Assembly (NCBI RefSeq): GCF_058153355.1
Contig: NZ_CM177019.1
Strand: one strand, 5' to 3'
Length of the DNA stretch: 64,000 bases
Position numbers: made by a program. Positions 18,001 through 21,000 of this stretch are shown here, piece by piece. The stretch's first letter is position 1; each line of letters begins with the position of its first letter.

Positions 18001-21000
18001 GGTTTGCCGTCGGTACGCGCCATTCCCTGAGCGATAAACCCCGCGCCCTGTTCATGGCGAGCCAGAATATGGCGGATTTGCGTGCTTTGGCTTAAGGCGT
18101 CGTAAACAGGCAGGATAGAACCGCCCGGAATGCCCGTCACAATCTTAATGCCCTGCTGTTCCAGGAAATGAACGATAAATTCTGCGCCGGTAAAGCGCTT
18201 ACGTGTCGATGATGTGCCCGAACTTGCCATGCTCCAGTCCTTTTCTTCTGGGCCGACTTTCCGGGAGGTGCTTAAACGAAAAACCCCGCCCGGTTTGCGC
18301 CGGCGGGGTTTTGGAATCGTGTGTTGTTCCAGTCCCTACGGCGCATTGCCGACGACCACCACCACACGCACGACGACCACTGCGGCGGATGGCGCAGTTG
18401 GTAGTAGTTTTGCGTTGAGCATGGAAGTAGTCATTGGGGACCTTGTTGGTTTTGTGTTTAACAATATTTATACAAGCACAGGTTTACAGGGGAGACAATG
18501 GAAAATTTTTCATCAAGGGAAAATTGAGGGATTGATCACGTTTTGTACTGAAAAGCAGGCAATAAAAAACCCCGCCGGAGCGAGGTTTCGTCAGCCGCCC
18601 GCGGCTGGTAACCGCAAAGCACACTGTATTATGTCAACACTGAAAGTATACGTGTTCCGCGCAGAACGCGCAATTTCGGCACGAATTTTGACGTATTTAG
18701 TACATAGTTGAGTATCGATCACAGTTTACGTTTTGTCTAAATATTACTGTTTATTTATACAGTGAACTTCTATAATATCACTGTACGCAATGTGTTATGC
18801 GGGGGCCGCATCGTTACCCGGCGCACTAAGTCCTGGCTGAAACGGGTGGTGCCGTCAGCGCCTTAACCCCGCGTGAGCACACTGTGTTATGTCAACAAGC
18901 ACAACGTTTCTCCTTGAGATACCGCGTGCACAACAGCTGGCAACAGGCAGCGGAAAGGTACGTCAGCTGGCAGTGCTCCTGAACCACAGGAGACGCGTAT
19001 GAGCCTGGTGGATATCGCCATTCTTATCCTCAAACTCATTGTTGCAGCACTGCAACTGCTTGATGCTGTTCTGAAATACCTGAAGTAATTCAGATTCAAG
19101 TCGCACCAAAGGGGAGCGGGTAACCGCTCCCCTTTCATATTTAGCGTGCGGGTTGGTGTCGGATGCGATGCTGATGCATCTTATCCGCCCTACCATCCCT
19201 CCCGGCAACATTTATTGCCGCTTTTGTTTACATATTCTGCCGCTAAACAATTCCCCATTCCTGGCGTATATCTGGCTAACATTCATCAATGTGATAGATT
19301 CCTCTCCCGCATTTATGGGAATGCGTAGTGACTTATTCTAATTATTTTTATAAAAGCATCCGTGATAATGAAAAGGCATAGAAACGTCAATTTGTTATTG
19401 ATGTTGGTATTACTCGTGGCCGTCGGTCAGATGGCGCAAACCATTTATATTCCAGCTATTGCCGATATGGCGCGCGATCTCAACGTCCGTGAAGGGGCGG
19501 TGCAGAGCGTAATGGGCGCTTATCTGCTGACTTACGGTGTCTCGCAGCTGTTTTATGGCCCGATTTCCGACCGCGTGGGCCGCCGACCGGTGATCCTCGT
19601 CGGAATGTCCATTTTTATGCTGGCAACGCTGGTCGCGGTCACGACCTCCAGTTTGACGGTGTTGATTGCCGCCAGCGCGATGCAGGGGATGGGCACCGGC
19701 GTAGGCGGTGTAATGGCGCGTACTTTGCCGCGTGATTTATATGAACGGACACAGTTGCGCCACGCTAATAGCTTGTTAAATATGGGTATTCTCGTCAGTC
19801 CGTTGCTCGCACCGTTAATCGGCGGTCTGCTGGATACGATGTGGAACTGGCGCGCCTGTTATCTCTTCCTGTTGGTACTTTGTGCCGGTGTGACCTTCAG
19901 TATGGCGCGCTGGATGCCGGAAACGCGTCCGGTAGATGCACCACACACGCGCCTGCTTACCAGTTATAAAACGCTTTTCGGTAACAGCGGTTTTAACTGT
20001 TATTTGCTGATGCTGATTGGCGGTCTGGCCGGGATTGCCGCCTTTGAAGCCTGCTCCGGCGTGCTGATGGGTGCGGTATTAGGGCTGAGCAGTATGACGG
20101 TCAGTATTTTGTTTATTCTGCCGATTCCGGCGGCATTTTTTGGAGCATGGTTTGCCGGGCGTCCTAATAAACGATTCCCGACGTTGATGTGGCAGTCGGT
20201 TATCTGCTGCCTGCTGGCTGGCTTGCTGATGTGGATCCCCGACTGGTTTGGCGTGATGAATGTCTGGACGCTGCTCGTTCCCGCCGCGCTGTTCTTTTTC
20301 GGTGCCGGGATGCTGTTTCCGCTGGCGACCAGCGGCGCAATGGAACCGTTCCCCTTCCTGGCGGGCACGGCGGGCGCGCTGGTCGGCGGTCTGCAAAACA
20401 TTGGTTCCGGCGTGCTTGCGTCGCTCTCTGCGATGTTGCCGCAAACCGGTCAGGGCAGCCTGGGGTTGTTGATGACCTTAATGGGATTGTTGATCGTGCT
20501 GTGCTGGCTACCGCTGGCGACGCGGATGTCGCATCAGGGGCAGCCCGTTTAAGCTCACGTCACCGCAGCATCGTCATCAGCTCCATGGGAGAACGATGCT
20601 GCTTTATCAGATCACGCATCACCCGCATATGCGGCGCGGAGTAAGAATAAAACGCCTGATAGCCCGCACAAAGCACGTTGTCTGGCGTCTCCTCCCTAGC
20701 GTGCGGGCACAGCCGATGCCAGTCGCACGCCTGGCAGCCACGGCCCGGTTGCGGGTTTTCGCTGCCACACCATTTTTGTAGGGTGGCGTCAAAAAGCTCA
20801 ATCGAGATACGACTAATATCTGCCCGTACCCAACACTCGAACAGGGCAATTAAAAATTTCCCCCACAGCTCTGCTGTCACCGAAGCGGCCGTCAGATCGC
20901 CCCGGTCATCAAATTCAAGATGGGGAATAAGCTGTACGGAGCGGATGCCCCGCTGTTTGAAATTGTAATAAAAATCGGCAGGTTGCAGAGCATCCTTATA

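Follow-up and report, generated by a model that had tools for sequence, protein, structure and literature searches.

The window, i.e., the whole 64,000-nt stretch of DNA analysed here, almost certainly carries tisAB/istR-1, a chromosomal type I toxin-antitoxin module of Escherichia coli, at its usual site. Among the routes by which DNA-damaged cells become antibiotic-tolerant persisters, the one through TisB belongs to the best documented, and IstR-1 serves as the textbook example of competition between an antisense RNA and a standby ribosome. Detailed knowledge of the locus, population-level variation included, is already available, with a survey that spans over 2,000 E. coli genomes (PMC11264685). 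The window therefore holds a natural allele of a biochemically characterised locus and adds nothing new to the TisB/IstR-1 picture; its modest added value is an independent, anchor-unbiased confirmation of the conservation of the antisense duplex and of its boundary at the IstR-1 5′ end.

Identity and architecture of the locus

The assignment to tisB/istR-1 had been made from the sequence alone, and collinearity with K-12, the Rfam istR model and the TisB family models all agree with it. In the K-12 MG1655 record (reference interval NC_000913.3 3853118..3853642), the genes follow the order ilvB, ivbL, istR (IstR-1, IstR-2), tisB, ysdE, emrD. The same order was found in the window using the ORF list (at least 20 aa) and annotation transferred from K-12 and strain N96, with ivbL-ilvB on one side of istR/tisB and ysdE-emrD on the other. 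The comparison with the annotated K-12 locus, which the original prediction had proposed as a check, aligned window positions 18540-19150 with istR/tisAB at an offset of 16,945, without indels and at about 98-99% identity. Through this alignment, the K-12 annotation is placed at 18564..18703(-) for IstR-2, 18564..18636(-) for IstR-1 and 18999..19088(+) for tisB. Matches to a 901-nt query around the locus were found in 5,420 of 5,426 complete E. coli genomes, and the annotation beneath them was tisB, ysdE and ivbL. A 102-nt filler in ST131-type genomes was checked as a possible tis/istR remnant and gave chance-level matches only.

The predicted 29-aa tisB corresponds to an ATG-initiated ORF whose product passed the curated cut-offs of both Pfam and NCBIfam over its full length (residues 1-29), scoring 37.6 bits against PF13939 (cut-off 25), 69.9 against NF011340 (53) and 61.5 against TIGR04459 (38); it carries one substitution (N2S) relative to K-12. 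On the strand opposite tisB, the Rfam model RF01400 (istR) matched 18564..18693(-) at full length (model positions 1-130 of 130) with 147.7 bits, compared with a gathering threshold of 45, and E = 1.3e-31. We saw no sequence evidence against the tisAB/istR-1 explanation at this locus. Its elements are as follows:

18564..18638, minus strand: istR-1, the antitoxin sRNA IstR-1 of about 75 nt (18564..18636 by transfer from RefSeq K-12)
18564..18703, minus strand: istR-2, the longer, SOS-induced form of 140 nt, which has its 3′ end in common with IstR-1 (K-12 transfer)
18564..18591, minus strand: IstR intrinsic terminator hairpin and U-tail (Rfam terminal stem, terminator scan and MFE fold)
18645..18673, minus strand: constitutive IstR-1 promoter, with -35 TTGCGC (18673..18668), a 17-nt spacer and -10 TATACT (18650..18645)
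18711..18739, minus strand: IstR-2 promoter, with -35 TAGACA (18734..18739), a 17-nt spacer and -10 GATACT (promoter scan)
18745..18764, no strand assigned: LexA operator TACTGTTTATTTATACAGTG, between the divergent istR-2 and tisAB promoters
18771..18776, plus strand: tisAB -10 TATAAT (from the sequence; same hexamer in PMC11264685 Table 1)
18783..19143, plus strand: tisAB mRNA, approximate ends, with putative +42 at about 18824 and +106 at about 18888
18889..19002, plus strand: tisA ORF, 37 aa (ORF list), with its ATG within the IstR-1 target
18988..18993, plus strand: tisB Shine-Dalgarno sequence AGGAGA (from the sequence), predicted to be sequestered
18999..19088, plus strand: tisB CDS, 29-aa membrane toxin, ATG start, N2S allele, MSLVDIAILILKLIVAALQLLDAVLKYLK
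19108..19145, plus strand: tisAB intrinsic terminator, an inverted repeat with a 12-bp perfect stem and a 4-nt loop, followed by TTTCATATTT

The four elements originally described (tisB, LexA box, repeat and spacing) were each found within 2 nt of their predicted positions. The predicted span of 18570..19088 clips the istR 3′ end at 18564 and leaves out the tisAB terminator at 19108..19135 together with its T-tract.

The LexA box was located correctly, with CTG-N10-CAG exactly at 18747..18762. The full 20-mer agrees with the consensus TACTG(TA)5CAGTA at 17 of 20 positions and is the only such site in the 64-kb window at up to three mismatches; none of 100 shuffles yielded one. The operator lies between TAGACA on the minus strand and TATAAT at 18771..18776 on the plus strand, i.e., it is common to two divergent transcription units, and all related loci with sufficient upstream DNA keep CTG-N10-CAG at this position.

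Judging by its distance to TATAAT, the tisAB transcript would start at about 18783, 7 nt past the hexamer. We took the +42 and +106 processing sites from PMC6690012 and placed them by counting from this putative +1, which puts +106 (about 18888) in the middle of the IstR-1 duplex and the tisB AUG at about +217. The AGGAGA core upstream of tisB is kept in most of 61 related loci, with AGGAGG in a few. For tisA, no experimental support of translation has been reported (PMC11264685), and its ATG is replaced by ACG in 28 of 41 distinct related loci; the tisA start codon inside the duplex is not conserved.

Within the IstR-2 unit, a sigma-70 promoter for IstR-1 is predicted from the sequence, and its hexamers are those of MG1655 in PMC11264685 Table 1. 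We infer that the 5′ end of IstR-1 is G18638, 2 nt off the end transferred from RefSeq, because the -10 element TATACT lies six nt upstream, because this end gives the 21-nt complementarity quoted in PMC4147584, and because it coincides with the edge of the pairing conserved across genera (see below).

The IstR-1/tisAB duplex and its conservation

The original prediction described a 20-nt element occurring twice on the same strand. Both plus-strand copies are present, but the true length of the direct repeat (AGCACACTGTRTTATGTCAACA) is 22 nt. The copies, at 18618..18639 and 18876..18897, are 258 nt apart and identical at 21 of 22 positions. With up to three mismatches allowed, the pattern has only these two matches in the 64 kb, where shuffles lead one to expect 0.00; from the end of the second copy to the tisB ATG there are 102 nt. 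The single difference between the copies, an A/G exchange, had been noted as a mismatch. The difference does exist, but K-12 has the same A in its istR copy and the same G in its leader copy, and at the RNA level it yields a U·G wobble. We also considered whether it is specific to this strain and rejected this, as it is present in K-12 and in loci of other Escherichia, Klebsiella and Raoultella. The two pairing segments are:

18617..18638, minus strand: IstR-1 5′ antisense tail, GUUGACAUAAUACAGUGUGCUU, in a 22-bp duplex with the tisAB leader
18875..18896, plus strand: IstR-1 target, the ribosome standby site in the tisAB 5′ UTR, GAGCACACUGUGUUAUGUCAAC (duplex, comparative pairing and PMC6690012)

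In the register that the comparative data support, IstR 18638..18617 pairs with tisAB 18875..18896 over 22 bp, of which 20 are Watson-Crick and two are G·U pairs; the apparent mismatch in the DNA is an internal G·U. The IstR-1 5′ tail is thus complementary over 22 nt to the tisAB 5′ UTR about 100 nt upstream of the tisB RBS, compared with the 21 nt or more expected of a tisB/istR-1 system. The RNA duplex prediction between the copies, likewise proposed at the outset, gave -34.8 kcal/mol for the 22-mers, compared with -6.5 +/- 2.5 kcal/mol for shuffled targets. Duplex prediction on the full-length RNAs was discarded, as it ignored intramolecular structure and returned unrealistically long duplexes; we used the 22-mer duplex and partition-function accessibilities instead. 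The predicted fold of the +1 RNA has its initial ~24 nt base-paired to the target region, a thermodynamic prediction that is weak when taken alone. The predicted mean P(unpaired) of the target was 0.36 in the +1 form and 0.48 in the +42 form, a modest rise that is weak evidence, although its direction is that of the model. Whichever of the three mRNA forms is folded, the RBS is predicted to be mostly paired, with mean P(unpaired) values of 0.21-0.25 for the Shine-Dalgarno sequence and the AUG. The tisAB leader in the window is identical to the K-12 RNA that has been probed.

To avoid circularity, related loci were located in species-representative genomes through tisB coding sequence only, using a degenerate DNA pattern back-translated from TisB residues 12-26; the repeat was not part of this anchor. 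Among the 71 pattern matches, 61 encode TisB-like 29-mers from about 13 enterobacterial genera: Escherichia, Salmonella, Citrobacter, Enterobacter, Leclercia, Lelliottia, Klebsiella (mainly the oxytoca group), Raoultella, Trabulsiella, Siccibacter, Phytobacter, Pseudenterobacter and Huaxiibacter. The other 10 (Lokiarchaeota, Chlorobiota, Clostridium and others) were dropped for their wrong peptide context. An Rfam scan detected a divergent istR in all 18 loci scanned (68-145 bits), and the repeat was found wherever sufficient upstream DNA was available, with a single apparent exception, in which a group II intron pushes istR 2 kb away.

For the analysis of pairing, the target was joined to the reverse complement of the istR copy as a pseudo-hairpin, resulting in an alignment of 41 distinct rows. 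Inclusion of 4-nt flanks diluted the first pairing statistics; the core was therefore re-run on the 22 bp (columns 4-25), and the flanks were kept as negative controls. In the core, 98.9% of the cells are paired (10 of 902 are unpaired). Compensatory double changes occur at three pairs, namely U-A to C-G (13 vs 25 rows), A-U to G-C (once) and G-C to A-U (once), and four further pairs vary between G-C and G·U only. Neither the observed pairing nor the covariation was reached in any of 500 shuffles, and when the register was slid by 1-3 nt, pairing fell to 20-47% without compensatory changes. Because the copies were located with a regular expression that prescribes eight of the 22 helix columns (11-18, save for the R at column 15), the invariance there is uninformative; all covarying columns lie outside this fixed core. 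These patterns indicate that compensatory changes and substitutions that preserve wobble pairs have kept the IstR-1/tisAB duplex intact in about 13 genera.

Two direct repeats on one strand, 258 nt apart, could also be read as a DNA-level feature without a role in RNA pairing, such as a protein-binding site in duplicate, or what is left of a duplication event. The way in which the copies differ argues against this: of the 65 cells in which they do, 55 (located in 4 of the 8 columns with differences) change in a way that retains a G·U pair, the two copies co-change at three positions, and so few cells are left unpaired. Moreover, the boundaries of the repeat coincide with a transcript 5′ end, copy 1 lies within an Rfam-validated sRNA, and the pairing has been shown experimentally in K-12 (PMC6690012). 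The probability of a purely DNA-level repeat is therefore practically negligible.

The conserved pairing also has a sharp edge. In the four flank columns per side, 2-49% of the rows are paired, save for one column at 71% that consists mostly of G·U, and on the istR side the drop in pairing falls exactly at the putative IstR-1 5′ end. This bears on the idea that the LexA-controlled IstR-2 (18703..18564), rather than the constitutive IstR-1, is the relevant antisense regulator, which is attractive in that IstR-2 carries the same 22 nt and its promoter adjoins the LexA box. The conserved complementarity ends exactly at the IstR-1 5′ end, however, and in the adjoining column the share of paired loci is only 29%, which is more in line with selection on the tail of IstR-1 than on a stretch inside IstR-2. 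In addition, much of the antisense segment would be buried in the predicted IstR-2 fold, and IstR-2 is stated in the literature not to repress tisB translation (PMC11264685). We regard a leading role of IstR-2 as extremely improbable, and IstR-1 is taken as the antitoxin in what follows.

Standby-site mechanism and related systems

The standby-site mechanism named in the original prediction is the one that has been established experimentally for this locus (PMC6690012, PMC4147584, PMC5668327), and the tisAB leader of the window is identical to the K-12 leader used in that work. Our own analysis covers the identity of the locus, its sequence elements, the duplex and its conservation; transcripts, processing, standby binding, cleavage and toxicity are taken from the K-12 literature. 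In K-12, IstR-1, the tisAB +1, +42 and +106 transcripts and their SOS induction are established; the +1 mRNA is inert, and once 41 nt have been removed, a standby site some 100 nt ahead of the sequestered RBS lies open in single-stranded form (PMC6690012, PMC4147584, PMC5668327). The 30S subunit binds this site through protein S1, pairing of IstR-1 displaces both 30S and S1, and RNase III cuts the duplex, which results in the inert +106 mRNA (PMC6690012, PMC4147584, PMC5668327).

Transferred to the window, LexA bound at 18745..18764 would repress tisAB and the longer IstR-2 until DNA damage lifts the repression. The primary tisAB transcript would be inert, with the tisB RBS buried in structure and the upstream standby region paired with the 5′ end of the mRNA. 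Removal of the first 41 nt would free the single-stranded standby site at 18875..18896, about 100 nt upstream of tisB, where a 30S subunit could preload through S1 and then slide to the RBS. IstR-1 (18638..18564, minus strand), presumably made constitutively, would pair through its first 22 nt across the standby site (20 Watson-Crick and two G·U pairs), exclude the ribosome and create a substrate for RNase III, whose cleavage would leave the inert +106 mRNA. Upon strong SOS induction, tisAB mRNA would come to exceed IstR-1, and the 29-aa TisB would be made, insert into the inner membrane, collapse the proton motive force and drive dormancy or persistence.

The two effects ascribed to IstR-1 could also be weighted differently, with RNase III cleavage and mRNA decay doing essentially all of the work and standby occlusion being incidental. 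The duplex is of perfect length for an RNase III substrate, the +106 product maps to its middle when counted from the putative +1 (PMC6690012), and rnc mutants show raised tisB mRNA (PMC4147584). However, IstR-1 displaces 30S and S1 from the +42 mRNA, and in purified systems without RNase III it blocks translation in vitro (PMC6690012); occlusion and cleavage are sequential steps and not alternatives. We consider a mechanism based essentially on cleavage very unlikely.

Several other type I systems resemble tisB/istR-1 in their design. In zorO/orzO, dinQ/agrB and shoB/ohsC, which are likewise divergent enterobacterial modules, the toxin is small and hydrophobic, the 5′ UTR is long and structured and has to be processed at its 5′ end, and the divergently encoded sRNA base-pairs within this UTR at a site far from the RBS; zorO shares standby competition and RNase III cleavage as well, and dinQ is also under LexA control (PMC5668327, PMC4147584). 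Their toxin and sRNA sequences are unrelated, however, and they occupy other chromosomal sites, whereas the window matches the TisB and IstR models specifically. hok/sok is a type I system, too, with an inert primary mRNA that is activated by processing and a duplex that is cut by RNase III (PMC5668327). Unlike IstR-1, Sok is cis-encoded and overlapping and blocks translation of the coupled leader ORF mok; the activating processing takes place at the 3′ end, and both LexA control and a distal standby site are absent.

Allelic differences from K-12 and a match to the ilvB attenuator

Gene order and strands are the same in K-12 and in the window, and the 611 aligned nt contain 15 substitutions. 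None of these falls in the stretch that begins directly behind the LexA box and runs to the tisB start codon; it is 100% identical and includes the tisAB -10, the 5′ UTR with the standby site targeted by IstR-1, the tisA ORF and the Shine-Dalgarno sequence. Nor does IstR-1 differ in its promoter hexamers, its antisense tail or its terminator. Five of the 15 substitutions lie directly past the istR 3′ end, and two more istR-tisAB intergenic substitutions are found at 18702 and 18728. In the tisAB terminator, there is one change in the loop and one T-to-C in the T-tract (TTTC in the window, TTTT in K-12). Codon 2 of tisB is AGC in the window and AAC in K-12; the resulting N2S variant is the E. 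coli consensus allele, which is present in 85% of E. coli and toxic when overproduced (PMC11264685).

Other differences touch regulatory elements. The final base of the LexA 20-mer is G in the window and A in K-12 (...CAGTA), and the IstR-2 -35 differs by a single base, TAGACA in the window compared with TGGACA in K-12, for which the IstR-2 promoter hexamers are given in PMC11264685 Table 1. As 93.5% and 94.5% of loci carry the MG1655 allele at the LexA box and the IstR-2 -35, respectively (PMC11264685 Table 1), both bases in the window are minority alleles. LexA boxes ending in ...CAGTG are also present in loci of other species. In the first IstR stem, two A-to-G changes turn U-A pairs into U·G pairs. 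These variants (the last LexA base, the -35 of IstR-2, and both U·G pairs, whose stem masks part of the antisense tail) might shift the threshold of TisB induction.

A further match involves the IstR terminator. Its 3′ arm and U-tail show perfect 13-nt complementarity to the ilvB attenuator, namely to the 5′ arm of the terminator there; like this arm, the IstR segment is transcribed from the minus strand:

18578..18566, minus strand: IstR terminator 3′ arm and U-tail, CCGGCGGGGUUUU
18312..18300, minus strand: ilvB attenuator terminator 5′ arm, AAAACCCCGCCGG

Such complementarity raises the prospect of a second, neighbouring partner of IstR. If it were real, IstR invading the attenuator stem would couple the level of the antitoxin to read-through into ilvBN. 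We consider it very improbable that IstR acts on the ilvB attenuator or that the minority alleles shift the TisB threshold. A match to Rfam 'P6' at 18253..18310 (20.6 bits vs a gathering threshold of 50) was rejected, as it corresponds to the ilvB attenuator hairpin. The match between IstR and the ilvB attenuator recurs in many genera at a fixed distance of about 260 nt.

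The tisAB leader across genera

The start codon of tisA (window 18889..18891) falls within the standby site that IstR-1 targets, and the T of this codon (column 19) shows the most covariation in A3, our alignment of the IstR-1 target and the istR copy joined as a pseudo-hairpin. ACG takes the place of this ATG in 28 of the 41 distinct loci from other genera; the tisA reading frame is therefore not conserved beyond Escherichia, Salmonella and some Citrobacter. Such non-conservation agrees with the absence of evidence for tisA translation (PMC11264685).

The related loci L006-L076, found by a TisB-anchored search of species representatives, form three classes according to how far the tisB ATG lies from the IstR-1 target.

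Spacing between IstR-1 target and tisB start codon
About 83 nt: most Citrobacter, Enterobacter, Leclercia and others
About 117 nt: Escherichia, Salmonella, some Citrobacter
About 135-150 nt: Klebsiella and Raoultella

It follows from this range that the standby site tolerates large shifts in its distance to the ribosome binding site.

Most loci of Enterobacter, Leclercia, Lelliottia and the Klebsiella oxytoca group, together with a few of Citrobacter, possess an additional CTG-N10-CAG palindrome (e.g., TACTGAGTATGTTCGCAGTG) that follows the LexA box at a distance of 28-29 nt and overlaps the tisAB -10 element and transcription start. At this place downstream of the LexA box it is absent in E. 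coli and in the window.

Position of the second palindrome in related loci
L007 4585..4632: second CTG-N10-CAG palindrome; equivalent places in L009, L010, L026, L032, L033, L040, L075 and others

The element might serve as a second LexA operator or belong to a 5′ structure of the mRNA.

Insertions between istR and tisB

In E. coli H32, an ISKox3-family IS element is situated inside the istR-tisAB intergenic region, at or adjoining the LexA box.

Insertion in E. coli H32
L005 1252..2472: ISKox3-family IS element, equivalent to window position ~18750; homology to the window resumes at 18751

This insertion is likely to disconnect tisAB from its operator or promoter. In Klebsiella michiganensis DSM 25444 (L032 4626..6985), istR and tisB are held about 2.2 kb apart by a group II intron between them (match to RF02005 with 180.6 bits at 6450..6675), and both genes are apparently intact.

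Presence, absence and strain variation in E. coli

In ST131-type genomes, the flanks are common with the window up to the 3′ end of istR (18566) and again from 19202, and the intervening 635 nt are replaced by 102 unrelated nt (L003 2668..2769). The segment subject to presence or absence in E. coli comprises the entire tis/istR module and the downstream REP-like element (window 18567..19201). About 1,059 of 5,420 E. coli genomes fall into a band of 90-95% identity, and the flank-only matches sampled (H25-H29, about 93% identity, 30% coverage) suggest that this band is of the ST131 type. Copy-number variation of tis/istR has been reported previously (PMC11264685).

Over window 18400..19300 (901 nt), identity of ≥99% was reached in only 18 of the 5,420 complete E. 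coli genomes, which is why we place the window in a sparsely sampled E. coli lineage. The best match was strain N96 from a Tibetan pig (99.4%); K-12 showed 97.9%.

Flanking and other elements of the window

A perfect 13-nt inverted repeat links the 5′ arm of the ilvB attenuator terminator (18300..18312) and the istR terminator (18566..18578). The repeat recurs in many genera with a length of 11-13 nt and a spacing of about 256-266 nt, and at least six loci with CCTCGCC in the istR stem have lost it without compensation. The two elements are most likely GC-rich terminators conserved independently of each other; similarity of the istR 3′ end to other terminators has been described (PMC11264685).

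Downstream, a degenerate REP-like element (GGTGTCGGATGCGATGCTGATGCATCTTATCCGCCCTACC, ~19155..19196) lies 3′ of the tisAB terminator. Many E. coli strains (e.g., 2-1 and O111) have in its stead a palindromic repeat element that exceeds it in length by about 139 nt. Between tisB and emrD, the window also contains ysdE, an annotated gene of K-12 and further E. coli strains; its product had no match in Pfam or NCBIfam.

Elements downstream of tisAB
L004 ~1055..1235: longer palindromic repeat element, in the same place as the REP-like element of the window
Window 19212..19286 (-): ysdE, small ORF of 24 aa, MNVSQIYARNGELFSGRICKQKRQ

Besides istR, the only family above its gathering score in an Rfam scan of the 64-kb window was the RNA thermometer ROSE_2 (RF01832, 96.2 bits) at 33372..33444(-), presumably the ibpA 5′ UTR.
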